Part shown: in pieces, positions 3,134 through 57,500 of the stretch
Position numbering within the stretch: the stretch's first letter is position 1
Layout: each line of letters begins with the position of its first letter
NCBI GenBank assembly: GCA_017399145.1
Contig: JAFQEG010000030.1
Span: 17,529-81,528, forward strand
Length of the DNA stretch: 64,000 nt
From: Clostridia bacterium
Lineage (GTDB): Bacteria > Bacillota > Clostridia > Oscillospirales > CAG-272
Reading direction: 5' to 3'
Position numbers and translations under genes: made by a program
The notes under the pieces: model-generated
What the model saw: only the letters and a program-made list of their open reading frames with translations
What the model was told of the DNA's origin: nothing
The model's database searches: none

Positions 3134-4447
3134 TTATTGATTTTTTTCGTAAGCGCTCTTACAAAATTCAAAAAAGGCTGTATTGTCTATTCTACCCTTT
3201 AATCTGTTTGCACCTGCACCTACTACAAAAAATGGTACGTCAACGTTTGTGTGGTCCTTTGTTGTAAAGGTATAGTAGGTTTGGCTTTCGTTCGAGATAA
3301 TGCCACCTGTTTCGTGGTCGGCAGTTACAACTAGGGCAACCTCCGGGTGCATTAGTGCGAATTGAGATGCGTAAGTAATTGCGTCATTAAAGCGAATAAC
3401 GCAGTTTATTGTCCTACGCAAATTCCTATCATTTGACGCCTTATCAATGTATGCCTCCTCAATCATTAAAAAGAAGCCGTTTTCATTGTTTAACTGATAT
3501 AGTGCTTCCCTTGTATGATTTGTTAGGTCGTTTCCTACCTCGCCCTGTAAATAGTCAATCTCGCCTTGGCTTACGAGTATGTCGATTTGTGCTTGTAGAA
3601 GGTCCGAATCCTTTCTTGCATCGTGGTGGCAAAGATAGGCACAGGGGGTAGCACCTGTTATTACGTCAGTTGTTATAATTCCTGTTTTTGCGCCACTTAG
3701 GTGGGCTAATTCTCTTATATTCACAAGCGTATTCTTGTCCTTGTCAACTCCTAGGTAGCCATTTAGAGTTTTTGTGCCCGTTGCCATAGCGGTTGCAGAG
3801 GCAGCGCTATCGGTAAATTCAGCCTCGCCGTCAATTACAGATTGGGACTGAGTTATTACTGTGCCGATTGAGGTAAAATCCTTTGCTATAAATCTGTCAA
3901 GAGAGTCCCATTCTGCCATATTTATATGGTTTTGACCCATTCCGTCGCCTATCATAAAGATGACGCTTTTATAGTCATTTTTATAGTAAAAGCTACGGGG
4001 AGTGTCGGTAGTTGGCATATTTTTAAGGTATATTTTTTCTTCCTTAATTTCTAGGTGGTCGTTTAAAAACGCACCACAGCCACCACCTACAAATATACTA
4101 TTTCCTTGAATTACTATTTTGTCATTCCTTATAAATAGCTGATACTGCTTTTCTCTTGGGGTTTTGCTTGTTTGGGATTCCTCTCTATTTGTTTTGCCTA
4201 TTAGGATTTCCTTTTGCAAAGGAGTGTCAGCATCGGTTGTAAGGGGTAGGTCTAGCTTATATTTTTCCTTTATTGTTAGTATGAAATTGTCGGCACAATA
4301 TTTAGTTATAGTGTCTGCATTTTCGGGAATTACTACACGATATTCCTCTAGACTTATTTCCTCACTGCGGGTTACCTCGTTACAGGAAAACAGACACAGG
4401 ATAGCTAAAATTATTGTTAAGACAACTAAAAAGATTTTCTTTTTCAT
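3134..4447 (-). CDS. alkaline phosphatase family lipoprotein
   Basis: Motifs GDGMG, DSAASATAMATG (active-site Ser) and ADHETGG. I chose the ATG at 4447, giving the lipoprotein signal MKKKIFLVVLTIILAILCLFSC. The longer track ORF starts with a GTG inside a hairpin. An extra N-terminal region of about 150 aa is uncharacterised. Confidence 0.85.
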   Translation of the reverse strand: MKKKIFLVVLTIILAILCLFSCNEVTRSEEISLEEYRVVIPENADTITKYCADNFILTIKEKYKLDLPLTTDADTPLQKEILIGKTNREESQTSKTPREKQYQLFIRNDKIVIQGNSIFVGGGCGAFLNDHLEIKEEKIYLKNMPTTDTPRSFYYKNDYKSVIFMIGDGMGQNHINMAEWDSLDRFIAKDFTSIGTVITQSQSVIDGEAEFTDSAASATAMATGTKTLNGYLGVDKDKNTLVNIRELAHLSGAKTGIITTDVITGATPCAYLCHHDARKDSDLLQAQIDILVSQGEIDYLQGEVGNDLTNHTREALYQLNNENGFFLMIEEAYIDKASNDRNLRRTINCVIRFNDAITYASQFALMHPEVALVVTADHETGGIISNESQTYYTFTTKDHTNVDVPFFVVGAGANRLKGRIDNTAFFEFCKSAYEKNQ

Positions 4448-11920: not shown

Positions 11921-12052
11921 TATGTACCTGCCTTTCTTCTAATATTATATGCAAGGCTGTTTGTTGGGTCAAAGACAGTTAAATTTCACAAATAACGGTA
12001 GATAAACAAAAAAGGACAGGAGCAAGTCATGTCTTTCGCTTATGGCGCAACA

Positions 12053-12292
12053 CTTATCACAGTGATATTCTGCGAAACAAGTTAAAATCAACGGTTTACC
12101 GTTGTATATCATCAATTTGAAAATTTGTATATCACCAATTTTGAAAAAATTGCATATCATCAAGTCGCGGGAAAAATACACGCTGGTGCGTGATGAGATA
12201 CGCCAAGGCGATGATATGCAACCTGCGGTTGATGATATACCAAGTCTGCGACTTGGATAAAAAGAAAACCTAATCCAAGTTCGGATTAGGTT
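12053..12292. repeat. mini-hairpin/linker array A (linker GATGATATAC family), compound palindrome
   Basis: Minus-sense linkers are GTATATCATCA 12104-12114, GTATATCACCA 12127-12137 and GCATATCATCA 12152-12162. Plus-sense linkers are GATGAGATAC 12192-12201, GATGATATGC 12210-12219 and GATGATATAC 12231-12240. Short hairpins lie between them: AACGGtttaCCGTT, ACGCtggtGCGT, GCCaaGGC, AACCtgcGGTT, CAAGTctgcgACTTG and AAACCTAATCCaagttcGGATTAGGTTT. Confidence 0.8.
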
Positions 12293-12355
12293 TCTTTTGG
12301 CGCACCTGATTTGCAACAGGTTGCAAAGACATTTCGAATTCACGACGGGCGATAT

Positions 12356-12392
12356 ACAAAAAAAGACAGGTTTTTACCTGTCTTTTTTTGTA
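12356..12392 (-). terminator. terminator of tRNA-Arg
   Basis: AAAAAAAGACAGG-ttttta-CCTGTCTTTTTTT immediately 3' of the tRNA on the minus strand. Confidence 0.8.
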
Positions 12393-12394
12393 TA

Positions 12395-12470
12395 TGGCGC
12401 GCCCGGCAGGATTCGAACCTGCGACCTACCGGTTCGTAGCCGGGCACTCTATCCGCTGAGCTACGGGCGC
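12395..12470 (-). tRNA. tRNA-Arg (anticodon ACG), CCA encoded
   Basis: The reverse complement GCGCCCGTAGCTCAGCGGATAGAGTGCCCGGCTACGAACCGGTAGGTCGCAGGTTCGAATCCTGCCGGGCGCGCCA folds as a 76-nt cloverleaf. Acceptor is GCGCCCG/CGGGCGC, anticodon loop CTACGAA, T-loop TTCGAAT. Confidence 0.9.
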
Positions 12471-19458: not shown

Positions 19459-19487
19459 TTGACAAACTCCTTTTCATAGTGTATAAT
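19459..19487 (+). promoter_or_regulatory. promoter of tRNA-Thr
   Basis: TTGACA (19459-19464), 17-nt spacer, TATAAT (19482-19487), 11 nt before the tRNA 5' end. Confidence 0.75.
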
Positions 19488-19498
19488 AGTTTCGCTAT

Positions 19499-19574
19499 GC
19501 TACTATGGCTCAGTTGGTAGAGCACATCCTTGGTAAGGATGAGGTCGCCAGTTCGATTCTGGCTAGTAGCTCCA
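19499..19574 (+). tRNA. tRNA-Thr (anticodon GGT), CCA encoded
   Basis: GCTACTATGGCTCAGTTGGTAGAGCACATCCTTGGTAAGGATGAGGTCGCCAGTTCGATTCTGGCTAGTAGCTCCA. Acceptor is GCTACTA/TAGTAGC, anticodon loop TTGGTAA, T-loop TTCGATT. Confidence 0.9.
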
Positions 19575-19575
19575 G

Positions 19576-19605
19576 AAAAACGACAGGTTAAGCCTGTCGT
19601 TTTTC
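19576..19605 (+). terminator. terminator of tRNA-Thr
   Basis: AAACGACAGG-ttaag-CCTGTCGTTT followed by TT. Confidence 0.75.
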
Positions 19606-19606
19606 A

Positions 19607-19868
19607 ATTAAATCCGTCGCAACGGGTTAAATCCCACTGACGTGGGATGAAATCACTACGTGATGAAGTCCGCCTTCGTCGGGTTGTAGATAGACGGATT
19701 TGATTTCATCTGAGTTGCAAACGAAGATTTCATCCAAGTGTGCTTGGATTTCATCGTGCTTTTGCACGATTTCATTCTACTATATATCATCAACCGAGGG
19801 TTGTATCCTCTCTCGCTGTGATGATAGACAATTTCTGCGAAATTGGTGATATACAAGGCTTTGCCTTG
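19607..19868. repeat. mini-hairpin/linker array B (GATGAAATC-type, then GATGATATAC-type linkers), compound palindrome
   Basis: Plus-sense linkers are TTAAATC 19608, GTTAAAT 19626, ATGAAATC 19647 and ATGAAGTC 19663. Minus-sense linkers are GATTTCATC 19702, GATTTCATC 19726, ATTTCATC 19748 and ATTTCAT 19769. These are followed by ATATCATCA 19783, GATGATAGAC 19820 and GGTGATATAC 19845. Hairpins between them are CCGTcgcaACGG, CCCACtgacGTGGG, CACtacGTG, CCAAGtgtgCTTGG, CGTGCttttGCACG, AATTTCtgcGAAATT and AAGGCtttGCCTT. Confidence 0.8.
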
Positions 19869-19879
19869 ATTTTTTAATT

Positions 19880-19912
19880 AAAAAAGTGCTTGGAAAATCC
19901 AAGCACTTTTTT
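19880..19912 (-). terminator. terminator of the LRR gene
   Basis: AGTGCTTGG-aaaat-CCAAGCACT (19885-19907) flanked by A and T runs, 2 nt after the stop. Confidence 0.75.
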
Positions 19913-19913
19913 G

Positions 19914-22900
19914 TTATTCTTCCACTCGGTAGTTGAATATCCTTTCTGCCCTATAAAGCTCATCCTCGGCACAGTTTACATCGACTATCCATTGTTTCTC
20001 TGTGCCTGCATAATACATCTTTTCTACGCCTGAATCTAGGAATGCGTATGGGTGAATTGTCTCGAGGCCTATTCCAAAATAGACTGTTTTCAGGTTTGTA
20101 CAGTTTCTAAACGCTGATGGGCCTATACTTGAAACTGAGTTACCTATTACTACCACTTGTAGCTTTTCATTACCACGGAAAGCATCACCAGCTATGGTTT
20201 TAACTGTTGATGGGATTACGTATTTACTGTCAAGCTTTGCTGGCGGGTATGCTATAAGCGTAGTCATATCCTTTTTAAATACTACTCCATCAATGCTACA
20301 TAGATACGGGTGATCCTGTGCTACAAAAAATTCCGATAATCCAAAGCAACCTGCTAGTGACCAATTGGAAACTCCTGTAAGCGTTGCAGGGATTGTCATA
20401 GCGCTTATATTGTAGCATCCCCAAAATGCATCGTTACCAAGGACACGGGTTGTGCTTGGGAAATCAATTCCTCTTAATTCTGTACAAAACCAAAAGGCAC
20501 CCATGTCAATCCATTCAAGTCCCTCATTGAGATTAATGGTTAGTAGATTGCTACAATTTGAAAAGGCATAGTTCTCGATTGAGAAAACAGTATCAGGCAA
20601 AGTTACATACAGAATGCTTTTGTTGTCCGCAAAGGAATATGGCCCAACTATCTCAGTACCACTTGGCACTATGTAGGTGCTACCTTCCTTCTTTGGTGGG
20701 TATCTTACTAGCCTACCTTCACTATCAAATAAAACGCCATCTATACTATAAAAGGCTTCACTTGTTTCGTCAACCGATATACTTTCTAGGTTTGATTGAG
20801 AAAACGCCTCATAGTTAATTGTAGTTGTTGTGCTTGGAATTGTAACAGTTTTAAAGCCTACCTTACTAAACGCATATTCTTGAATTGTCTTAAGGCTTTC
20901 ACCTAGGTTTACATTTTCTAAGCCTGTACAATTGCTAAAGGCGTACTCGCTAATAAAGGCTGTACCATCTAGGGTTACGTTTTTAATATTGATACAATTC
21001 TCGAAATATCTAGTTGGCACGCTTGAGGCACCATATACCACGGTTGTTAGCTTATCTGGAATATAGAAGCCATAGTACATAGGATTGTACTTGCTGTCAT
21101 CATAGCATTGAAGGGTTTTTGTTGAACCATCAAATTTCTCCTCTCCGAATAGATATCCAAAGTATCTAGTTTTAAGAATATCCTCATCGCCTTCATAGTA
21201 AGTGTTAATTTTTTCTAAGTTGTAGCATCCCGACAGAATTGCCTCGCCTAGTGAGGTTATATCCTTAGACACTGTATATTCCTTTACAGCGGTACAGCCC
21301 TTAAAGGCATAATTTCCAATAGTCATAACTCCCTGTATGTCTAGGTTTTCCATTGAAGTGCAATTCAAAAATGCGTAATCCTTAATTTCGTAGACGCTAT
21401 TTGCCACTAGGGTGGTTAAAGAATTACAATTTGCAAAGGCATAGCTACCTATACTATCAATTGTTTCCACTATTGAAAATTCCTTTAGCTTAATACAGCC
21501 TGAGAATGAATTATTATGGATTACGATATCCTTGTAAGGTATGTAGCCATTTGCGCTTACCTTTACAAGCGAGGTGCAGTTTTCAAAGGCATTTGCACCA
21601 AATTCAGCCACTGCTCCGGCTATTTCTACATTTTCTAGTGCTTTACACTCTGCAAATGCATAGCTACCGATAGTTGTATCTTTGACTGGTAAGGATATAC
21701 CCTTTAGGCTAGTACAGTTATAGAATGCGTAGTCCTTAAATACCTCTACGCCCTTAGGTGTTGATAGCTGTACAAGGCTAGTACAGTTTTCAAAGGCACT
21801 CTTGCCTATACTATTTACCATTGTGCTAAAGGATACGCTTTCAAGTCCTGTACAATTACGGAAGGCACCCTCGCCAACCTCGCTAAGATATTGTGGTAGA
21901 CTTACGGTCTTTATTCCTACTATGCCCTCAAAGGCATATTTGTGAATGCTTGTACAAGTGCTACCCTCTTCAAAGGTAAGGCTTGTTAGCTTAGGTGCGT
22001 TTTCATTTTGCTGATATTCAGGTCTAAACAGATAGTTAGGTATTTCTTTTGCCGCTGTACCTATTATCAATGACGTGCCCTCTGTGTCAGCACCTGCACG
22101 ATAGAATATTTTGTTGCTTTCCTCCAAGCTATCATTTACTATGGTATGCACAATATTATAGTTGATTTTTGATAGCTTGGTTGTACCATAAAAGGCTTCA
22201 TAGTCTATGTGTACACTTTTTCCACCAAGGGTCAATTCCTCAATTGAAGCACAATTCTTGAAGGCTTTCTCGCCAATTGATGAAATATCATTGTCTAATG
22301 TAACCCTCTTCAAATAGATGTTATTCTCGAAGGCGTGATTGCTTATTAATGTTATGCCCTGTGGAAGGGTAAAGTCCTCATTTTTTCTGTCCTGTGGGTA
22401 GCAAATTAGGATTTCGCCTTTTATTAATGCGCCGTTATCTACCCTAAGTACTGAGTTTTCTTCGTCAACTATTATTTCCTCTAGCAAGCTACAACCATTA
22501 AAGCTAGTTGGAGATACCACAGTAAGTGAAGATGGCAATTTAATTGTGGAAATAGCGGTGCCTGTAAAGGCATACTCGTCTATTTCATTAAGTCCCTCGT
22601 TTAGGCTTATAGAGTTAAAGCCACAATTATAAAATGCATAGCCATAGATTTTAACTGTGCTTGGTGATAAATTCACCTCGGTCAATGCTGTACAATTATA
22701 AAAGGCTTTCTCTTTTACCGCTTGGACTTCGTTTGGTATTTGAATTTTCTTTAGTCCTGTACAGTTTTTAAACACACCTGCACCAAGTACTCTAACTCCC
22801 GTTGGAATTGTTATTTTTTCAATTCCAACACAGTCTGCAAAGGCTTCATCACCGATAGACGTAATATCACTAGGAAGAATTATTTCCGTTAGGCTACCAC

Positions 22901-25565
22901 AGCCGGAAAATGCGCCCTGTAATATATTTCCACCTGTTACGGTTACAGATTTTAGGTTGCTTGGTAGGTAATATTCGCTAGTTACTATCTTTCCGTTTTT
23001 TTTGTAGGTTTGCACAGCTAGTATTGCGTTGTTTAGCCCAGCTAAGTCAAAGATAAAGCCGAAGGGGTATTGAGTAGAACTATCCTCCTCACTTCGAGAA
23101 TTGCCTATGAACGGAATAGTTATTTTTTCAAGACTTGGACAGCTTGAAAAGGCACCTGCGCCGATTTTTTCAACTGAGTCTGGTACAATAATTTCACTAA
23201 TTCCCATGCAATAGGAAAAGGTGCTTGCACCGATTGTCTTAAGGTTGCTTGGTAGCTGTATTTTTGTAAGGCCCTCACAGTATAAAAATGCCCTGTCACC
23301 AATTGTTGTAACTGTTTCGGGTATGGTTATCTCCTCAAGCTCCGTGCAACGACCGAATGCCCATTCGTCGATTATGACTGTACCTGTTGGTATTTCTATG
23401 GTTTTGATTTTTTTACACTTGAAAAACGCGTTTTCGCCAATTTGTGTAATGGTTTGAGGTAAAATAACCTCTTCAAGATTGCCACAATTTGCAAAGGCAC
23501 CACCTAGGATATCGCCACCTGTAATGGTTATCCTAGTTAGTCCATTTGGTATATAGGCATGGTATTCGGTTTCTTTGCCATATTGGTCTACGTAGGGTTG
23601 CTTAGTTAGGCTTGTGCCCTCACACTCCTCATTTCCAAATATATAGCCTAGAGGGTATTGGGCTTTGTCGGTTGGCGATTTTATCTCATCACCTATAAAT
23701 GGAAGGGTTATTTCCTTAATTGCAATGCAATTTGCAAAGGCACCCTTTCCTATTTTGGTAACTGTGCTTGGGACTGTTATTTTCTCAATTTTTGAGCAAT
23801 TTTGTAGCGCGTTGATTCCAATTTGGTCAAGGCTAGGTGGAAATTCTATTCCCGTTAATTCAACGCAATTTGCAAAGGCACTCTCGTCTATTTTTGTAAT
23901 TGTTTTAGGAAGGATGATTTCCTTAAGGCTAACACAATCCTTAAATGCATTTTTTGGTATTTCTTCGCCACTATTTATTAGGACATTTTCCACACAGGTA
24001 AGGGTAAATTTATCCAGGTGATTAACTGGTGTGGTTAGTCTTTTAAGATTGGTTGCTTGTCTAAATGTGCACATTTCTATTTGACTAAGCTGAGGTGGAA
24101 TTATGATTTCCTCAATGCCTCTACATGCTGAAAATGGGTCATTTAAGACTTGTATGCTACTAGGTAGGTCTAATTTTGTAATAGAGGTACATGCAAAAAA
24201 TGCAAGTCTTCCAATGGTTTCAAGTCCATTTGGTAGAGTTACGTCTGTAAGTGCCTCGCACCAGCGAAATGCCTCCTCTTGAATTTCAACAAGTCCTTGT
24301 CCTAGAATAGCTGTTTTAAGAGATTTACAATTATGGAATAGTCTTTTTGGTATTATTCTTAGACTACTTAGGTCTGCCTCTGTAATTAATTCACAATATT
24401 CAAATGCACTCTGTCCTATTTCGGTTACATTTGCAAGAGAAGGTATATTGACAAGCTTTTTACAGTCATAAAACGATCTTTCGCCTATTTTTTCAACTGT
24501 TGCTTCTACTGTTGTCAATTCGCTACAATTTATAAACGCCTCGTCCTCTATGGTTGTGATTGTTTTAGGCAAGGTTATACTCTCTAAAAACCTACATTCA
24601 CGGAATACAAATGGGTTGATTTTAGACACAGGGTAGGACTTTTCCTCAATTTCAATGCTTTCAGGAATGGCAAAGGTCTTAGCCTCGCTTACATAGCCTA
24701 CCACTTCTGCCTCTTGTCCATTTACATAATATTGAAGGTTATCAATTATTATCGTGTTGCTAGGGGTTATACCAAATACCACGGGGCAATTGGCTGAATT
24801 CCAATTTTCGTGAAGGGTGATTTGGCTTTGGTCCTGCGCTTCAAAATAAATTGTTGTACCACTACAATAAGAAAATGCGTCCGTTACTATTTCTGTAATA
24901 GTTTTAGGTATAATCATTTTCTTTATGCCTGTATTATTTATCAAGGCTTGATTGATTACCGTAACACTGCTTGGAATGGTGAGTGAACAAAGGGCTTCAC
25001 AGCCTGCAAAGGCATAGCTTCCTATTTCTGTCACGTTATTGTGTATTATAACCTCTGTTACACTCTTACAGTCACCAAAGGCATACTCACCAATTGACGT
25101 TACGTGACTTGGAATTTCTATTTTAGTTATGCCGTTGCACCCTGAAAAACAGCCATTTGGAATTGTGGTAATAGCCTTAGGTATGTTATATTCCTCAAGC
25201 AAGGTGCATCCACGAAATGCGTAACCGCCTATGCTTGTTACGCTTTCTGGTATTTGTATTTTCTTTAAGCTCTCACAGTCAGAAAAGGCTATTTCACCAA
25301 TAGACACAAGCGTACTTGGAAGAGTAATTTCTTCCATTTTTGACCAAGAAAATGCGCCTCGTCCTATATGGGTAACATCCTCGGGGACTACTAGAATTTT
25401 TTTGTCCGTATTTTTTAGCCCTGTTATTGTAATAGTGCCGTTTTCCTCAATATATTCAAAATCGGAAAGGTCTTCCCTTTCCTCATTTTCTGGTGCTTGG
25501 TTACATCCTACAAGGGTTAAGACTAAGATGAGCGCAAGGACAATGCCTACTATCCATTTTCTCAT
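19914..25565 (-). CDS. giant BspA-type leucine-rich-repeat (LRR_5) surface lipoprotein, 1883 aa
   Basis: Lipobox LTLVGCNQ. Nearly the whole length consists of repeats of about 23-25 aa such as IPxSVTxIGxxAFxxCxxL. RBS is AAAGGAG. Confidence 0.85.
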   Translation of the reverse strand: MRKWIVGIVLALILVLTLVGCNQAPENEEREDLSDFEYIEENGTITITGLKNTDKKILVVPEDVTHIGRGAFSWSKMEEITLPSTLVSIGEIAFSDCESLKKIQIPESVTSIGGYAFRGCTLLEEYNIPKAITTIPNGCFSGCNGITKIEIPSHVTSIGEYAFGDCKSVTEVIIHNNVTEIGSYAFAGCEALCSLTIPSSVTVINQALINNTGIKKMIIPKTITEIVTDAFSYCSGTTIYFEAQDQSQITLHENWNSANCPVVFGITPSNTIIIDNLQYYVNGQEAEVVGYVSEAKTFAIPESIEIEEKSYPVSKINPFVFRECRFLESITLPKTITTIEDEAFINCSELTTVEATVEKIGERSFYDCKKLVNIPSLANVTEIGQSAFEYCELITEADLSSLRIIPKRLFHNCKSLKTAILGQGLVEIQEEAFRWCEALTDVTLPNGLETIGRLAFFACTSITKLDLPSSIQVLNDPFSACRGIEEIIIPPQLSQIEMCTFRQATNLKRLTTPVNHLDKFTLTCVENVLINSGEEIPKNAFKDCVSLKEIILPKTITKIDESAFANCVELTGIEFPPSLDQIGINALQNCSKIEKITVPSTVTKIGKGAFANCIAIKEITLPFIGDEIKSPTDKAQYPLGYIFGNEECEGTSLTKQPYVDQYGKETEYHAYIPNGLTRITITGGDILGGAFANCGNLEEVILPQTITQIGENAFFKCKKIKTIEIPTGTVIIDEWAFGRCTELEEITIPETVTTIGDRAFLYCEGLTKIQLPSNLKTIGASTFSYCMGISEIIVPDSVEKIGAGAFSSCPSLEKITIPFIGNSRSEEDSSTQYPFGFIFDLAGLNNAILAVQTYKKNGKIVTSEYYLPSNLKSVTVTGGNILQGAFSGCGSLTEIILPSDITSIGDEAFADCVGIEKITIPTGVRVLGAGVFKNCTGLKKIQIPNEVQAVKEKAFYNCTALTEVNLSPSTVKIYGYAFYNCGFNSISLNEGLNEIDEYAFTGTAISTIKLPSSLTVVSPTSFNGCSLLEEIIVDEENSVLRVDNGALIKGEILICYPQDRKNEDFTLPQGITLISNHAFENNIYLKRVTLDNDISSIGEKAFKNCASIEELTLGGKSVHIDYEAFYGTTKLSKINYNIVHTIVNDSLEESNKIFYRAGADTEGTSLIIGTAAKEIPNYLFRPEYQQNENAPKLTSLTFEEGSTCTSIHKYAFEGIVGIKTVSLPQYLSEVGEGAFRNCTGLESVSFSTMVNSIGKSAFENCTSLVQLSTPKGVEVFKDYAFYNCTSLKGISLPVKDTTIGSYAFAECKALENVEIAGAVAEFGANAFENCTSLVKVSANGYIPYKDIVIHNNSFSGCIKLKEFSIVETIDSIGSYAFANCNSLTTLVANSVYEIKDYAFLNCTSMENLDIQGVMTIGNYAFKGCTAVKEYTVSKDITSLGEAILSGCYNLEKINTYYEGDEDILKTRYFGYLFGEEKFDGSTKTLQCYDDSKYNPMYYGFYIPDKLTTVVYGASSVPTRYFENCINIKNVTLDGTAFISEYAFSNCTGLENVNLGESLKTIQEYAFSKVGFKTVTIPSTTTTINYEAFSQSNLESISVDETSEAFYSIDGVLFDSEGRLVRYPPKKEGSTYIVPSGTEIVGPYSFADNKSILYVTLPDTVFSIENYAFSNCSNLLTINLNEGLEWIDMGAFWFCTELRGIDFPSTTRVLGNDAFWGCYNISAMTIPATLTGVSNWSLAGCFGLSEFFVAQDHPYLCSIDGVVFKKDMTTLIAYPPAKLDSKYVIPSTVKTIAGDAFRGNEKLQVVVIGNSVSSIGPSAFRNCTNLKTVYFGIGLETIHPYAFLDSGVEKMYYAGTEKQWIVDVNCAEDELYRAERIFNYRVEE

Positions 25566-28140: not shown

Positions 28141-28147
28141 ATTTACG

Positions 28148-28256
28148 ATCTTTAAGGTCGATACAGAGATATCGACAAGATTTGTGTTAAATATTGTTCC
28201 CCTTTTTGTGCTTTGGGGATATTATGCGAATCTTGTCGTGGGACAAGATTTTTTTA
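28148..28256 (+). promoter_or_regulatory. pyr transcription attenuator (PyrR-binding-like anti-antiterminator, antiterminator, terminator)
   Basis: The hairpin ATCTTTAAGGTCGATACAGAGATATCGACAAGATT (28148-28182) resembles the PyrR-site pattern UCUUUAA..GUC.AGAGA..GAC.AAGA. GACAAGATT (28174-28182) can alternatively pair with AATCTTGTC (28229-28237). The terminator is ATCTTGTC-gtgg-GACAAGAT plus T7 (28230-28256). Confidence 0.6.
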
Positions 28257-28282
28257 TTGCAGTTTCTAAAGGAGATACGAGA

Positions 28283-35072: not shown

Positions 35073-35170
35073 CAAACTCACAATGAAATCCTGCTAACGC
35101 AGGGTTAAATCTTTACAGATGAAATCACAGTGAACCACTGTGATGAAGTCCAAGCAAGGCTTGGGTTGAA
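35058..35170. repeat. mini-hairpin/linker array C (pyrF-pyrE spacer)
   Basis: GAGTTTGTT-gggt-AACAAACTC (35058-35079) spans the pyrF stop. Next come AATGAAATC, then CCTGCtaacGCAGG (35090-35103), then GTTAAATC, then GATGAAATC (35118-35126). These are followed by CACAGTGaacCACTGTG (35126-35142), ATGAAGTC (35143-35150) and CCAAGCaagGCTTGG (35150-35164). Confidence 0.8.
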
Positions 35171-35262
35171 AAGAATAAATAAAACAAGGGGTTTAGATGG
35201 TGAGGAAAATTGCGATTTTCGTTTTTACCAACCTGTAAATCCCCGTATTAAAGGAGTCTATA

Positions 35263-35914: not shown

Positions 35915-36000
35915 GCAAATCGTTGCCTTGCAGTTATGATTACACTTTCGTGTAAGTTATGAGCTTTGCTTTCGCAAAACGTTATGAGTGACTACGTCAC
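35915..36000. repeat. mini-hairpin/linker array F (linker GTTATGAG/GTTATGAT; pyrE-pyrB spacer)
   Basis: GCAAatcgTTGC (35915-35926), GTTATGAT (35933-35940), TACACtttcGTGTA (35941-35954), AGTTATGAG (35955-35963), TTTGCtttcGCAAA (35965-35978), GTTATGAG (35981-35988), GTGACtacGTCAC (35988-36000). Confidence 0.75.
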
Positions 36001-37485: not shown

Positions 37486-37520
37486 GAGATTTTCACGCTT
37501 GTGAAAATCTCTTCTTTTTT
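37486..37520 (+). terminator. terminator of the pyr operon
   Basis: GAGATTTTCAC-gctt-GTGAAAATCTC followed by TTCTTTTTT. Confidence 0.8.
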
Positions 37521-37521
37521 A

Positions 37522-37636
37522 TGCTTTTCCTAAGTGCGACCTCTTCTCTGTCGTACAAAGTACGCCGACGAGTACGAGTTCACACTTTCTCACAGCACTC
37601 TAACGCCTCTAGGGTTAGTTTGTGCGTGGCAGTCAG
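37522..37636. repeat. hairpin-mosaic repeat, copy A
   Basis: TGCTTTTCCTAAGTGCGACC...GTACaaaGTAC...CTAACgcctctagGGTTAG...TTTGTGCGTGGCAGTCA, colinear with 37771-37930. Confidence 0.75.
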
Positions 37637-37770: not shown

Positions 37771-37930
37771 TGCTTTTCTAAAGGCGACCGCTACTCTGCA
37801 GTACACAGTACGGCGACGGAAACCCCCAAAGCTCATTCTTCACTTTGGAGAACCCCTGGCGACGTGTACGCGTTCACCTTTTCTCTACCTCTCCTGATGC
37901 CCCTAGGTGAAGTTTGTGCGTGTGGCAGTC
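37771..37930. repeat. hairpin-mosaic repeat, copy B, with an extra internal hairpin
   Basis: Colinear with copy A, with many substitutions that keep the stems (GTACacaGTAC). It has 46 extra nt: a 39-nt hairpin-containing insert (37819-37857) bracketed by GGCGACG at 37812-37818 and 37858-37864. Confidence 0.75.
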
Positions 37931-37935
37931 AAAAG

Positions 37936-37990
37936 CCGACTAACAGTCGGCAATGAAATTACCTTGTGATGAGGACCTTGCAAAGCAAGG
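37936..37990. repeat. short mini-hairpin/linker array D
   Basis: CCGACtaacaGTCGG (37936-37950), CAATGAAATT, GTGATGAGGAC (37966-37976), CCTTGCaaaGCAAGG (37976-37990). Confidence 0.65.
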
Positions 37991-38001
37991 ATTTGAATAA
38001 T

Positions 38002-46625: not shown

Positions 46626-48731
46626 ATGCAACTGATTATTGCGGAAAAGCCTTCCCTTGCAAGGAATATTATTCAAGGAATTGCAAGGCTACAAAAGGAC
46701 GAAATGAAGAAAAAGAATGGCTATTACGAGGGTGGCAATTACGTTGTTACTTGGGTTTTCGGTCACCTTTTCTCTCTTGCTGATATTGAGGAATATTCCC
46801 CATCTAAGTCGGGTAAATGGGAAATGGATAATCTTCCTTGCTTTCCTGAAAGATTTAAGTTTAATTTAAAGACCGGACCTGACAAAAAGGTTGATTCCGG
46901 TGTGCAAAAGCAATTTGGTGTTATTAAGTATCTTTGCAACAGACGTGACATTGACACTATTGTAAATGCAGGTGACTCGGACCGTGAGGGTGAAATTATT
47001 GTAAGAATTTGCGTTGAAAATGCTCTTGAGTCACAAAAAAACCTTGTGCGTCTTTGGTTGCCCGACCAAACGCCTGAAACCGTTTCAGCAGGGCTTCAGG
47101 ATTTAAAGAATGAGGTTGAATACGATAATCTTGCAAACGAGGGCTTTGCACGTACCTATATTGACTGGCTTTACGGTGTTAACCTAACTCGCTTTGCTAC
47201 ACTTAAAACGGGTAAGCTACTTCGTGTTGGTCGTGTTATTGTGCCTATTGTTAAGGCTATTTACGACAGAGACCTAGCTATAAGAAACTTTGTGCCTGAG
47301 AAGTATTATGTAATTACCTCACACGAAAAGACAAACGATGAGTTCGTTGATTTGACCTCGAAGAATAAGTTTACTAAGGACGAGTATCAAAAGGCCCTTG
47401 ATGCCTGTAAAAAATACAACGAGGTTGATGCAATTGTAACCTCAGTTAAGACAAAAAAGGATACCCTTTCCCCACCTAAATTGTTCTCTCTTTCTAAATT
47501 GCAAAGCTATTTAGGTAAGAAGTTTAAGATGTCAATGGACGACTCCTTGTCTACTGTGCAAAAGCTATACGAGGACGGATACGTTACTTACCCTCGTACA
47601 AACTCTGAGTATTTAGCAACTGCGGAGCAGGGAAAGATTAAGACTATCATTGCAAACGTTGCAAAGCTTGGCTACCCTGTTAAGTTTAAATTTGCTAAGT
47701 CTATATTTGACGATTCTAAGATTGAGTCCCACTCTGCCCTAACACCTACCTATAAAATTCCTGACCCTAAGACGCTTAATGAAAGAGAAAAACAGGTTTA
47801 CTCTACTATTTTAAGGCGATTTGTGGCAGTATTTTGCGCTGACGATTGCTTGATTGAAAGGTCGGAGATTAAGATAAACGTAGGGGACCTAGAGGAATTT
47901 GTTTTAAAGGGTACTGTTATTACTCAAGCAGGCTGGACTAAGTTTGACGACTACACCCCTAAGGACAAGATTTTGCCTAAGCTTTCTAAGGGGGATAAGG
48001 TAAATACCTGCTTTAAGCCTGTGGAAAAGGAAACTACTCCACCTAAGCATTACACCATTGAAACACTTAATAACTACCTTAAAAATCCTTTTAAGGAGGA
48101 TAAGGCAAACGCAGACGAAAGTGACGACGAGGATTACAAGGCTATCTTTGAGGGTCTTGAATTAGGCACAGAGGCGACTCGTACGGGAATTATTGAAAAT
48201 GCCTGTAAGAGTGCTTACATTATGCTTAAAAAGGACTCTTATTATATCTTGCCTGACGGTGAGTACTTGATTGAGGCACTTTCTCAGCTAGGTATTATTA
48301 TGGATAAGTATAAGACCTCGCAAATGGGTCAAGCGCTTAAGAGAGTTTTCCGTGGGGAGTGTACGATTTTCGATAGCGTTGGTCTTGCGCAAAAGGAAAT
48401 TAGAGAGATTTTTGATAAGTCTCTTGACGTAAATCCTGAGCTTGATATTAACATTGGCTTGTTTGGTGAGATAGTTGGAAAATGTCCTCTTTGCGACCAC
48501 GACGTGGTAAGGACAAAATTCGGCTACGGCTGTACAGGCTACAAGGAAGAAAACGGCTGTAAGTTTTCCATTAACAAAACTATTTGCTCACGCACAATTT
48601 CAATTTCAAACGTAAAAATGCTACTAGCCACCGGTAAAACTAGCAAGATTAAGGGCTTTATTTCTAAAAACAAAAAGTCCTTTGATGCAGTTCTAAAATT
48701 ACAAGATGGCAAGGTTGTGTTTGATTTTTAA
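46626..48731 (+). CDS. topB: DNA topoisomerase III (type IA)
   Basis: TOPRIM N-terminus MQLIIAEKPSLARNI, active-site region YVTYPRTNS, C-terminal zinc ribbons CPLCDHDV...GCTGYKEENGCKF, 701 aa. Confidence 0.9.
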   Translation: MQLIIAEKPSLARNIIQGIARLQKDEMKKKNGYYEGGNYVVTWVFGHLFSLADIEEYSPSKSGKWEMDNLPCFPERFKFNLKTGPDKKVDSGVQKQFGVIKYLCNRRDIDTIVNAGDSDREGEIIVRICVENALESQKNLVRLWLPDQTPETVSAGLQDLKNEVEYDNLANEGFARTYIDWLYGVNLTRFATLKTGKLLRVGRVIVPIVKAIYDRDLAIRNFVPEKYYVITSHEKTNDEFVDLTSKNKFTKDEYQKALDACKKYNEVDAIVTSVKTKKDTLSPPKLFSLSKLQSYLGKKFKMSMDDSLSTVQKLYEDGYVTYPRTNSEYLATAEQGKIKTIIANVAKLGYPVKFKFAKSIFDDSKIESHSALTPTYKIPDPKTLNEREKQVYSTILRRFVAVFCADDCLIERSEIKINVGDLEEFVLKGTVITQAGWTKFDDYTPKDKILPKLSKGDKVNTCFKPVEKETTPPKHYTIETLNNYLKNPFKEDKANADESDDEDYKAIFEGLELGTEATRTGIIENACKSAYIMLKKDSYYILPDGEYLIEALSQLGIIMDKYKTSQMGQALKRVFRGECTIFDSVGLAQKEIREIFDKSLDVNPELDINIGLFGEIVGKCPLCDHDVVRTKFGYGCTGYKEENGCKFSINKTICSRTISISNVKMLLATGKTSKIKGFISKNKKSFDAVLKLQDGKVVFDF

Positions 48732-49012
48732 CAAAGGCACGCTTCGTTGAAGCTACACCTCATCCGTCTGCTATGCAGACACCTTCTGCACAAGGCACGC
48801 CCTGAAGGGTGCCCTCAAGGGGAAGGCTCAATTTTGATGCAGTTCTAAAATTACAGGACGGCAAGGTTGTGTTTGATTTTTAACAAAGGCACGCTTCGTT
48901 GAAGCTACACCTCATCCGTCTGCTTTGCAGACACCTTCTGCACAAGGCACGTTTCTTCAGGGTGTCCTCAAGGGGAAGGCTTATAGACGGCGGGGTGTGT
49001 TTGATTTTTGAT
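48681..49012. repeat. 152-bp tandem repeat, about 2.2 copies (topB 3' end plus hairpin-mosaic element)
   Basis: Copy 1 is 48681-48832, copy 2 is 48833-48984, and a partial copy 3 is 48985-49012. Each unit holds the last 16 codons plus the stop of topB and the element GCTACACCTCATCCGTCTGCtatGCAGACACCTTC...CAAGGGGAAGGC. Confidence 0.85.
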
Positions 49013-52962: not shown

Positions 52963-52991
52963 TTGACAAGCTAGGTGTTTCGTGTTATAAT
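52963..52991 (+). promoter_or_regulatory. promoter of the rplJL operon
   Basis: TTGACA (52963-52968), 17-nt spacer, TATAAT (52986-52991). Confidence 0.75.
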
Positions 52992-52997
52992 ACCTAC

Positions 52998-53130
52998 GCT
53001 AATCCAAAGACAGCAGGTTACGGTAATTGCATTTAGTATGCTTCCTGCCGAGGAAAGAGTTAATATTTTTAATAATTAAATCTTTTTTCGGTATGCATAT
53101 TTTATGTTTATCGTGAAAAGATTTTTTCTT
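52998..53130 (+). promoter_or_regulatory. ribosomal protein L10 leader (autoregulatory attenuator)
   Basis: Its position upstream of rplJ fits. AAAGACAGCAGG...CTTCCTGCCGAGG helices are as I recall for the L10 leader. An attenuator hairpin ATCTTTTT..GAAAAGAT plus T-run follows (about 53080-53132). Confidence 0.55.
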
Positions 53131-53170
53131 TTATATGGCTGTTACGGAAATAACTAAGGAGGTTGTTTTT

Positions 53171-57276: not shown

Positions 57277-57396
57277 TTTACACGCCTCTCTGTGCGAGGC
57301 TACACCTCATCCGTCAGCTTTACTGACACCTTCCCCTCAAGGGGAAGGCTTTAAAACTCAACGGATATTTTAGGAAAAGGATTTAGAATAGTATAG
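57235..57396. repeat. 120-bp-offset direct duplication of the yitT 3' end flanking a hairpin-mosaic element
   Basis: AACTCAACGGATATACTTGGAAAAGGATTTAGAATAGTTTGA (57235-57276) is repeated as AACTCAACGGATATTTTAGGAAAAGGATTTAGAATAGTATAGA (57355-57397). Between the two copies lies GCTACACCTCATCCGTCAGctttaCTGACACCTTCCCCTcaaGGGGAAGGC. Confidence 0.85.
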
Positions 57397-57500
57397 ACAA
57401 GGTGTACTACACCTTGTCCAACGAAATCCTCTTACGAGGATGAAATCAACTGTGTTGATGAAGTCACTTCGTGATGAAGTCCTCGCTACGCAAGGGTTAA
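57396..57500. repeat. mini-hairpin/linker array E
   Basis: GACAAGGTGTactacACCTTGTC (57396-57418), CCTCttacGAGG (57428-57439), ATGAAATC (57440-57447), CAACtgtGTTG (57447-57457), ATGAAGTC (57458-57465), CACttcGTG (57465-57473), ATGAAGTC (57474-57481), CCTCGCtacGCAAGG (57481-57495). Confidence 0.75.

Follow-up and report, generated by a model that had tools for sequence, protein, structure and literature searches.

The 23S ribosomal RNA (rRNA) intervening sequences (IVSs) of Leptospira and Coxiella encode the S23p/IVP protein (PF05635). Members of this family (PF05635/TIGR02436) are annotated as '23S rRNA intervening sequence protein' or as four-helix-bundle protein, and to our knowledge they have no known role outside diversity-generating retroelements (DGRs). 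The S23p/IVP family has been discussed in two studies (PMC3936711, PMC10053308); it is related to the DGR protein Avd (PMC10053308), and its genes were also noted inside cas loci (PMC3936711). Gut-1 is a motif found in human-gut metagenomes only, about which no more was said (Weinberg et al. 2010, Genome Biol 11:R31, PMC2864571). Its consensus comprises three hairpins with variable, covarying stems and (G)UGAAAU or GUGAUAU linkers, and on covariation it was graded 'Y', i.e. certainly an RNA (PMC2864571). It has been in Rfam since 2010 as a gut-only RNA without assigned function, and in the literature we searched it is mentioned in the original paper only. Here we describe array B, a series of small hairpins joined by repeated linkers behind a tRNA-Thr gene of a Clostridia bacterium (contig JAFQEG010000030.1), together with its relative array A behind a tRNA-Arg gene. 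Both lie in a stretch of 64,000 nucleotides (the window), and the analysis covered these 64 kb of the genome only. Very probably, array B consists of a complete type-I composite and a truncated type-II composite, Gut-1 is a fragment of this class of elements, the class is enriched at tRNA 3' flanks, and in relatives the composites are the constant upstream neighbour of PF05635 genes, the copies in the window being orphans. The link between Gut-1 and the PF05635 family is a new association.

An Rfam scan at a relaxed threshold matched the Gut-1 model (RF01706), along its full length, in three places of the window, with 40.1 bits in array B (19605-19674), 33.0 bits at 35081-35154 and 31.0 bits at 57419-57483; array A scores 18.2 bits. 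None of them reaches the gathering score of 50 bits. The homologous positions in five other loci (L140, L100, L027, L139 and L094) score 50.6-53.6 bits, above the cut-off. Because the window copies stay below the threshold and their homologues pass it, we regard the 5' module of array B as a diverged Gut-1 relative, not as a formal member. The characteristic feature of Gut-1, three covarying hairpins with UGAAAU-type linkers, was found in it, as judged by the full-length model alignment and by the covariation in our alignment of homologous elements (A4). The genomic setting is also shared: Gut-1 often lies just 3' of a terminator, and one or more of its seed members lie behind a tRNA. One member of the published alignment contains a tRNA 3' end, a terminator, hairpins with GUGAUAUU linkers and inverted AAUAUCAC linkers (PMC2864571), which is the layout of array B. 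The Rfam model spans ~77 nt, whereas the element described here measures about 150-205 nt, with a closing stem and an inverted half in addition to its 5' terminus. Gut-1 is thus merely the 5' part of a larger element. The several linker families, the multiple copies per genome and the tie to PF05635 are absent from the Gut-1 description.

The complete type-I composite (Table 1) starts with AATTAAATCC, followed by hairpin 1 (hp1), TTAAATC, hp2, GATGAAATC, hp3, GATGAAGTC, hp4, a spacer and a closing segment. Its 3' part reads GATTTCATC, hp5, GATTTCATC, hp6, GATTTCATC, hp7 and a terminal GATTTCATT, the linkers of this half being the reverse complements of the 5'-half linkers. The initial annotation, made from the DNA letters of the window, had placed four plus-sense and four minus-sense linkers directly behind the tRNA-Thr terminator. 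The position is correct (terminator 19575-19605, array start 19606/19607), and the minus-sense linkers are four exact copies of GATTTCAT at 19702, 19726, 19747 and 19768, with a spacing of 24/21/21 nt. Two of the plus-sense linkers are exact ATGAARTC (19647 and 19663); the other two turned out to be TTAAATC variants (19608 and 19627). The four-plus/four-minus arrangement exists, and it is a fixed architecture common to the element family, not a local peculiarity. The nested palindrome AAATCCGTC/GACGGATTT was likewise recovered, its arms (19606-19618 and 19693-19705) being 13 nt long and 92% complementary.

That the array structure is real and non-random, as had been assumed, is borne out by linker counts exceeding those of every shuffle: ATGAARTC occurs 14 times in the window (3.8 +/- 1.7 expected; 0/100 shuffles), and 12 of these 14 copies lie inside arrays. 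Both strands also form far more stable folds than shuffles do (z = -4.9 and -5.6). The description of array B as a single array that switches linker family had to be abandoned in favor of two adjoining elements, 19606-19776 and 19782-19876, with a 5-nt spacer between them. The open reading frame (ORF) 19656-19856 on the minus strand (66 aa, with a recurring MKS) is an artefact, as was suspected, since the length differences between homologous elements are not multiples of three and the frame is not kept. Neither the relation to Gut-1 nor the link with four-helix-bundle genes had been noticed in the initial annotation.

Table 1. Coordinates of the composites, their parts and neighbouring features in the window.
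Feature	Position	Strand	Remarks
Complete type-I composite, 171 nt	19606..19776	+	colinear with 10 other loci (alignment A4)
Gut-1-like 5' module, hp1-hp3 and linkers	19605..19674	+	RF01706 40.1 bits, full model length, E = 1e-6
Closing stem, 5' arm	19606..19618	+	overlaps hp1 5' arm
Closing stem, 3' arm (GACGGATTTGATT)	19693..19705	+	GC/AU and CG/UA exchanges at two pairs, 11 elements
Composite 3' half	19702..19776	+	GATTTCAT(C/T) linkers at 19702, 19726, 19747, 19768
hp5	19708-19728	+	
hp6	19732-19749	+	
hp7	19753-19770	+	
Partial type-II composite (3' two-thirds)	19782..19876	+	aligns to 3' part of array A and of L298/L301/L307/L071 (alignment A5)
Array A, complete type-II composite behind tRNA-Arg	12081..12258	-	
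tRNA-Thr promoter, sigma-70-type consensus	19459..19487	+	TTGACA-17-TATAAT, 12/12 matches
tRNA-Thr (GGT)	19499..19574	+	
Intrinsic terminator of tRNA-Thr	19575..19605		A-run, 13-bp stem, T-run; directly adjoins composite
tRNA-Arg (ACG)	12395..12470	-	
Two terminator-like hairpins 3' of tRNA-Arg	about 12362-12392 and 12268-12298	-	followed by array A
Bidirectional terminator of convergent BspA-type leucine-rich-repeat (LRR) gene	19879..19913		right border of strain-variable segment
BspA-type LRR gene	19914-25565	-	
Solo Gut-1-like module, pyrF-pyrE spacer	35081..35172	+	forward linkers only; 33 bits
Solo Gut-1-like module between two co-directional genes	57419..57500	+	31 bits
Degenerate short module: AATGAAATT, hairpin, GATGAGGA, hairpin	37940..37995	+	ahead of terminator

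Pattern scans of GTDB genomes and JGI metagenomes yielded at least ~16 real arrays: about 9 on genome contigs (pattern GATGAAATC..GATGAAGTC) and about 7 on metagenome contigs, among the matches listed, most of which were chance or simple-repeat sequence. The false positives from sample Ga0126342 are long tandem 11-mers of the CCCATTAAATC/CCCATGAAATC type, unrelated to hairpin arrays (contigs L127, L138, L145, L150, L155, L162, L230 and others). Eleven arrays, including that of the window, share one fixed type-I architecture of 134-205 nt, the shortest being devoid of part of the 3' half; the other copies come from ruminant- and human-gut Clostridia (Oscillospirales-type metagenome-assembled genomes, MAGs). 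The 5' side of the consensus is A(A/G)TTAAATCC, hp1, (A/T)TAAATC, hp2, GATGAAATC, hp3, GATGAARTC, hp4 and a short spacer. The center is a segment complementary to the 5' terminus and the hp1 5' arm, and the 3' side runs from GAYTTCATC through hp5 ... hp7 to the GATTTCATT end. The stems vary freely, and the 8-10-nt linkers are conserved within a family, with 3-4 forward copies followed by 3-4 reverse-complement copies. A slot-wise analysis and pair counts on alignment A4 revealed covariation. In the closing stem, 95% of the cells of the 11 elements are paired, compared with 16-54% after sliding by 1-3 columns (0/500 shuffles); the local hairpins are 83% paired versus 32-39% slid, with 21 pairs changed on both sides (0/500 shuffles). 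As the 5' arms of hp1 and of the closing stem overlap, these two structures are mutually exclusive.

Such a structure could be a free-standing small RNA (sRNA) of the Gut-1 type, which would be transcribed by read-through from the tRNA promoter, freed by tRNA processing and active in trans, e.g. as a sponge for a protein binding UGAAAU-type linkers, independently of any four-helix-bundle gene. Apart from the published rating of Gut-1 as certainly RNA (PMC2864571), this is suggested by the two terminators that bracket the element on the plus strand (19575-19605 and 19854-19876), by the orientation of the composites, which are co-directional with the adjacent gene or tRNA in 11/11 loci, and by the U.A/U.G alternation at the base of hp1 and hp3 (5/11 each). 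A tandem G.A motif in hp5 (YGA-stem-GAR) is conserved on this strand only, inside a continuous helix, and the 5'-half loops show a strong polarity (U first in 30/37, C last in 24/37). However, the 3'-half loops have the complementary polarity (G first in 14/37, A last in 20/37), from which we conclude that the 3' half consists of physically inverted copies of 5'-half units. A single designed RNA accounts for this less well than inverted DNA units do. In addition, the folding energies favor neither strand, the composite contains no promoter of its own, an intrinsic terminator lies upstream in many loci, the element often sits between a terminator and a promoter, and the strict adjacency to PF05635 would be left unexplained. 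We consider an independent sRNA improbable. The loops showed no enrichment of GNRA or UNCG tetraloops; half of them are triloops.

The heptamer GTGATGA had been considered, as a speculation, to be a box-C/K-turn half-site for L7Ae-family proteins (YbxF/YlxQ). It does occur at all six hairpin/linker junctions where it had been noted, and the conserved G.A motif of hp5 would also be compatible with a K-turn. However, the array copies are a by-product of stems ending in GT followed by a GATGA linker, and five of the 11 copies on the plus strand of the window lie in coding sequence. GTGATGA is accompanied neither by a 3-nt bulge nor by a complementary box-D-type partner strand with a flanking C-stem, the hp5 G.A pairs are part of an uninterrupted helix, and the motif is missing from most homologous elements. 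The likelihood of this idea is negligible.

The distal part of array B carries another linker family (GATGATATAC-type, i.e. GATGATATRC-type), as had been recognized. Allowing for up to one mismatch, such linkers match 15 times in the window (5.1 expected), nine of the 15 in arrays A and B. The order within 19782-19876 is TATATCATC, a hairpin, the center, GATGATAGAC, a hairpin, GGTGATATAC, a hairpin (19854-19868) and GATTTTTT; the final hairpin together with its T-run resembles a terminator. Array A has hp1 (ATCCAAGTCGCAGACTTGG, ATCCAAG..CTTGG) and three forward linkers of the (G/T)(C/T)ATATCATC type. The GCGACTTG of its center pairs with the 5' arm of hp1. The center is followed by three linkers of the GATGATATRC type and a last hairpin, and the array ends with GATTTTAAC (GATTTT). 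It is colinear with four copies elsewhere (L298, L301, L307 and L071), which use TATGTAATC/GATTACATAC linkers. The type-II closing stem covaries among these elements (CAATCCGAAG/CTTCGGATTG, CAAACCGAAG/CTTCGGTTTG, CAAACTGAAA/TTTCAGTTTG and CAAGTCGC/GCGACTTG), and in the RNAalifold structure of the type-II copies the first reverse linker is paired with the innermost of the forward linkers. Both termini, forward hairpins, a closing segment and reverse-linker hairpins were found in 19606-19776 as well as in 12081-12258 (minus strand), which makes both of them composites by our definition.

The initial annotation had noted colinearity with the reverse complement of array A. This applies to the distal part, with an alignment score of 53 compared with 15.4 +/- 2.4 for shuffled sequences (0/500); the rest does not align. 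In the same way, the arrays at the two tRNA genes are indeed related and equally oriented relative to the tRNA, and array A has its paralog in the second element of array B only. Behind tRNA-Thr, a type-I element has taken the place of the 5' part of the type-II element.

Among the genes flanking independently found arrays, the one directly 3' of the composite encodes a PF05635/TIGR02436 protein in L016, L140 and L211, and the type-II array of L071 is followed by a 40%-identical homologue of this family. Starting from the protein side, a composite lies directly upstream in 22/22 first-fetched loci that extend 180 nt or more upstream of the gene and, for a third subfamily, in 5/5 loci inspected later; the sample comprises three subfamilies from one gut lineage. 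In gut metagenomes the family has thousands of members: three homologue searches found between about 1,900 and about 8,000 relatives each, mostly on contigs <2.5 kb. In subfamily X the order is guaA, hairpin, composite, ribosome-binding site (RBS) and gene, sometimes in tandem. Subfamily Z is arranged as tRNA, terminator, composite and gene, and subfamily Y as tRNA(s), terminator, composite and gene. The full unit in related genomes thus comprises a tRNA or guaA, a terminator, the composite, the four-helix-bundle gene and a terminator. The linkers differ by protein subfamily: X and Z, which are about 60% identical, have GATGAARTC/GAYTTCATC, and Y (about 40% identity) has TATGTAATC/GATTACATAC. 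A conserved context other than PF05635 was dismissed, the remaining flanking genes being unrelated (competence protein, YgjP-like, DUF1622, thiamine-pyrophosphate enzyme, helix-turn-helix, LRR). The closest solved structure is that of an uncharacterised protein (2RLD, 5 chains in the entry). PADLOC gave no match that would link four family members to defence.

Searching the 64-kb window by tblastn with four family members revealed no PF05635 gene, so both window composites are orphans. A route to such orphans is illustrated by L291, where only a truncated remnant of the protein gene separates one composite from the next. In the same group of loci (L291-L297), composite and four-helix-bundle gene form tandem units, and in one unit the gene is reduced to ATGAGAGAAAATTAA... 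The genes 3' of the guaA-composite-IVP cassettes vary by locus (GH39, endo/exonuclease-phosphatase, phosphoribosyltransferase), as in a variable island. One of these cassettes is followed, after 350 nt, by a ToxN-type toxin gene (type III toxin-antitoxin; L288, 1897-2385).

The composite could also act in cis on the four-helix-bundle gene downstream of it, as a regulatory leader or attenuator, with hp1 and the closing stem as a switch and the orphans as dead remnants. Three co-varying segments (hp1 5' arm, hp1 3' arm and central closing segment) exist in both element types, and 1-8 nt separate the end of the composite from the ribosome-binding site in subfamily X. However, promoter-like sites are located at or after the 3' end of the composite in L140 (TTGAAA-17-TATAAT, 11/12) and L298 (TTGATT-17-TATACT), which would put the composite outside the mRNA. 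Orphan copies are well conserved across strains, and a terminator/anti-terminator logic is not evident. A leader function is very improbable.

The arrangement resembles the 23S rRNA IVS in that a PF05635 protein is encoded beside a strongly self-complementary element, within or beside a stable-RNA gene that is highly transcribed, with signs of horizontal or selfish behaviour in both cases. In contrast, the cassettes studied here lie behind tRNA genes or guaA instead of inside 23S rRNA, and their structured element is located upstream of the ORF, not flanking it, and is an array of small hairpins instead of one long stem. The DGR protein Avd belongs to the same four-helix-bundle superfamily (PMC10053308) and would likewise act with an adjacent structured nucleic acid; unlike in DGRs, no reverse transcriptase, template/variable repeat pair or target gene was seen in the loci read.

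The association with tRNA 3' flanks had been noted in the window and recurs in ten independent loci from other organisms as well as in the Gut-1 alignment of Weinberg et al. The tRNA-adjacent arrays are those behind the window's tRNA-Thr and tRNA-Arg and those of L170 (Gln), L140 (Gly), L071 (Arg), L298 (Met-Glu), L301 (Gly-Arg-His), L307 (Ala), L321 (Met-Trp) and L046 (Met). In the last of these (4042-4320), the spacer between two tRNA-Met genes is filled by a two-hairpin ATGAAATC/ATGAAGTC module, which begins immediately after the CCA end of one of them. The junction TTTTTTC|A(A/G)TTAAATCC between terminator and composite was also found in L100, L170 and L139, and the terminator stem of the window is similar to that of L170, which stands behind a different tRNA in a different organism.

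One terminator-composite-IVP cassette with an identical protein was found with varied upstream neighbours (L315/L319, 1-700; L313/L318, 300-520). Its neighbours in L321 are tRNA-Met and tRNA-Trp. Elsewhere a large serine recombinase gene, the end of which mimics a tRNA 3' end (..GTTCGAATTT..GTGTCCACCA), lies in front of it, and in a third context its place is taken by a tRNA-like 3' end that carries a structured insert of ~130 nt. These three contexts of the same cassette mark the tRNA beside it as an integration hot spot in its own right.

Array A, the pyrF-pyrE module and an array with GTTATGA linkers are identical in other samples or differ by a loop base or a short flanking indel. At the array B locus of another strain, the radical-SAM protein is identical and the flanks are 99-100% identical, whereas the segment between them, from the CCA end of tRNA-Thr to the terminator of the LRR gene, is entirely different. 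The other allele has a different terminator, a composite with TATGGMWTC/ATTCCATRC linkers (TATGGAAT/ATTCCATA) and a flanking direct repeat of roughly 30 nt. The block TATATCATCA(A)CCGAGGGTTGTA is common to this allele and the window (19783-19805); the next 74 nt of the window are absent from the allele. The two alleles indicate that composites of different families replace each other or nest into each other at one tRNA flank, with the terminator traveling along. Hypervariability among strains as a general property was rejected, since the array A, pyrF-pyrE and pyrE-pyrB arrays are stable and only array B has two alleles.

The arrays could also be selfish DNA repeats of the REP/BIME (repetitive extragenic palindrome/bacterial interspersed mosaic element), BOX or MITE (miniature inverted-repeat transposable element) kind, i.e. 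non-autonomous mobile or recombinogenic DNA that settles near terminators and tRNA 3' ends by means of an unidentified enzyme. The four-helix-bundle gene would then be a passenger or the element's own gene, and effects at the RNA level (3'-end protection, insulation) would be incidental. The two unrelated array B alleles in near-identical flanks, one of them with the direct repeat around an inserted composite, are in line with this, as are the several copies and families within 64 kb, the imperfect inverted repeats at the termini (AAT(T/G)AAATC ... GATTTCATT), the inverted 3'-half units, the stems, which are nearly all perfect Watson-Crick, and the convergent, divergent (L071) and solitary modules that also occur. 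The short contigs carrying most of the protein genes are what one would see for multi-copy sequence. However, none of the 11 type-I copies shows a target-site duplication, and no transposase or REP-associated tyrosine transposase (RAYT) was found among the genes of the loci scanned. Of the MITE features, the imperfect terminal inverted repeats are present; a duplication is missing in these 11 copies, and there is no clean empty site among the strains compared. Copies within a genome share linkers and not stems, unlike recently transposed repeats, the pyrF-pyrE and tRNA-Arg arrays are identical across strains, and the orientation is always co-directional with the neighbouring genes. We regard a selfish repeat as unlikely.

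The REP/BIME elements of enterobacteria and the BOX elements of Streptococcus pneumoniae are similarly extragenic, modular palindromes of alternating orientation and variable unit number at gene ends and terminators, and the ends of BOX A/C can pair to close the element. There, however, the palindromes are conserved and the linkers vary, which is the opposite of what we observe; the present elements also belong to another phylum, are tied to one small protein family and come without a visible RAYT or transposase. A REP/BIME identity in the strict sense was rejected because of the variable stems and conserved linkers; no Y1 transposase was present among the flanking genes scanned.

Based on these observations we favor, with somewhat better than even confidence, the explanation that the window arrays are orphan copies of a modular element that is the cis partner of four-helix-bundle cassettes. 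The composite would be the cis-acting nucleic-acid partner of the cassette, and its repeated linkers, displayed between the hairpins, would serve as recognition sites of the cognate protein. Recognition by a trans-acting factor is suggested by the conservation of the linker sequences, although pairing alone would permit them to drift, by the presence of forward and inverted sets and by their difference between protein subfamilies. Being adjacent and oligomeric, the four-helix-bundle protein is the obvious candidate. It may form an oligomer with several identical binding surfaces, which the five chains in the entry of the crystallised relative 2RLD make plausible. Recognition of the linkers by the adjacent protein is a tentative proposal, somewhat less likely than not. 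Binding could lead to autoregulation and/or to a nucleoprotein complex at the tRNA 3' flank. The 5' end (AATTAAATCC and the first stem arm) can pair either locally or with the central segment. In the window copies, the protein gene would have been lost or never have been present. These copies would be transcribed via read-through of the tRNA terminator only and would be maintained as folded spacers of high stability that separate convergent transcription units.

Several points weigh against the proposed partnership. Many of the protein-side loci are the same locus resampled across metagenomes, with an estimated number of about 12 independent contexts. The match between linkers and subfamilies rests on two clearly different linker families only and could reflect co-inheritance of two linked parts. 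With no PF05635 gene in the window, the existence of a cognate protein in this genome is an assumption. Protein genes are fewer than composites and solo modules (a gene is present at 4 of at least ~16 loci found by DNA pattern), so that the arrays may have their own role. A plain dsDNA-operator model does not explain the palindromic spacers. Neither the G.U versus A.C counts, the latter being unreliable as some stems are misplaced in the MAFFT alignment, nor the sense and antisense folding energies show a clear strand bias. Finally, in subfamily X the composite is part of the guaA-IVP intercistronic RNA, without a promoter, and in the other subfamilies it lies upstream of a promoter; no single simple regulatory model accounts for every case.

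In its most specific form the proposal reads as follows. Composites would be specific ligands of PF05635/TIGR02436 proteins, each subfamily reading its own 8-10-nt linker (about 3+3 to 4+4 repeats), as parts of a two-part cassette that settles behind tRNA genes, behind guaA and, by extension, inside rRNA. We consider this possible, though rather doubtful. If true, it would make an orphan RNA motif and a very large orphan protein family functionally accessible for the first time, and it would amount to a simple, re-targetable code of protein-nucleic-acid recognition. The hypothesis, which combines a larger palindromic element around Gut-1, a PF05635 neighbour and a tRNA flank, is amenable to ordinary binding and reporter assays. 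The elements also account for a class of intergenic sequence that varies between strains and breaks assemblies of rumen and gut MAGs, and annotators should be warned that ORFs across these arrays are artefacts.

A number of other identities were considered and rejected. A CRISPR array is incompatible with repeats of 8-10 nt, half of them inverted, and with 'spacers' that are 7-17-nt palindromes. Integron attC sites and cassette arrays share with the composites imperfect palindromes of variable sequence but kept structure, short terminal motifs and, as in L291-L297, tandem units of a site and a small ORF. In contrast to attC, the GTTRRRY-like and RYYYAAC-like motifs stand in the opposite order ((A/G)TTAAATCC ... 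GGATTTAA(T/C)), all cassettes encode one protein family, and no integron integrase was seen adjoining the arrays. An array of terminators was dismissed since the internal hairpins lead into linkers; besides 19575-19605 and 19879-19913, a true T-run exists only at 19854-19876, and a weak terminator match at 19753-19770 corresponds to a TTTCATT linker behind a hairpin. A hammerhead-like core was rejected on its defining features. As regards a phage origin, a megablast search of 50,697 phage records gave no match, and of 29 pattern matches in IMG/VR none is a real array.

The window represents a bacterial chromosome with a G+C content of about 40%. It contains an L10 leader with ribosomal genes (the leader, at 52986-53136, scores above its threshold), the pyr operon, ddl, murF-like genes and genes for large surface proteins of the BspA-LRR and Listeria-Bacteroides-repeat types. 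Identical copies of its proteins were found only on contigs from ruminant gastro-intestinal metagenomes, and the MAGs with related elements are labelled Clostridia, Eubacteriales, Ruminococcus, Ruminococcaceae, Oscillospiraceae or Acutalibacteraceae. Between the upstream region of ddl and array A, an 18-codon hydrophobic ORF (MSFAYGATLITVIFCETS, 12030-12086, plus strand) with a Shine-Dalgarno-like sequence reads towards the array; it may be due to chance. A PyrR-binding-site-like element precedes the pyr genes (28145-28258, plus strand; 45.7 bits, gathering score 54).

Of the solo modules, the one between pyrF and pyrE is identical in six strains apart from one loop. A third linker family, GTTATGA(G), joins three small hairpins in the pyrE-pyrB spacer (35940-36000); this array is kept across strains, and the sole change is a 5-10-nt indel upstream. 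The window also contains a second, unrelated family of dispersed repeats with the core CTACACCTCATCCGTC, a hairpin and GACACCTTC ... CAAGGGGAAGGC, for which an Rfam search returned no match. Its sites are 48681-48981, 57296-57350, about 37520-37625 and about 37780-37925, and 3' of ORF 46626-48731 it forms a tandem duplication of ~150 nt with 94% identity.

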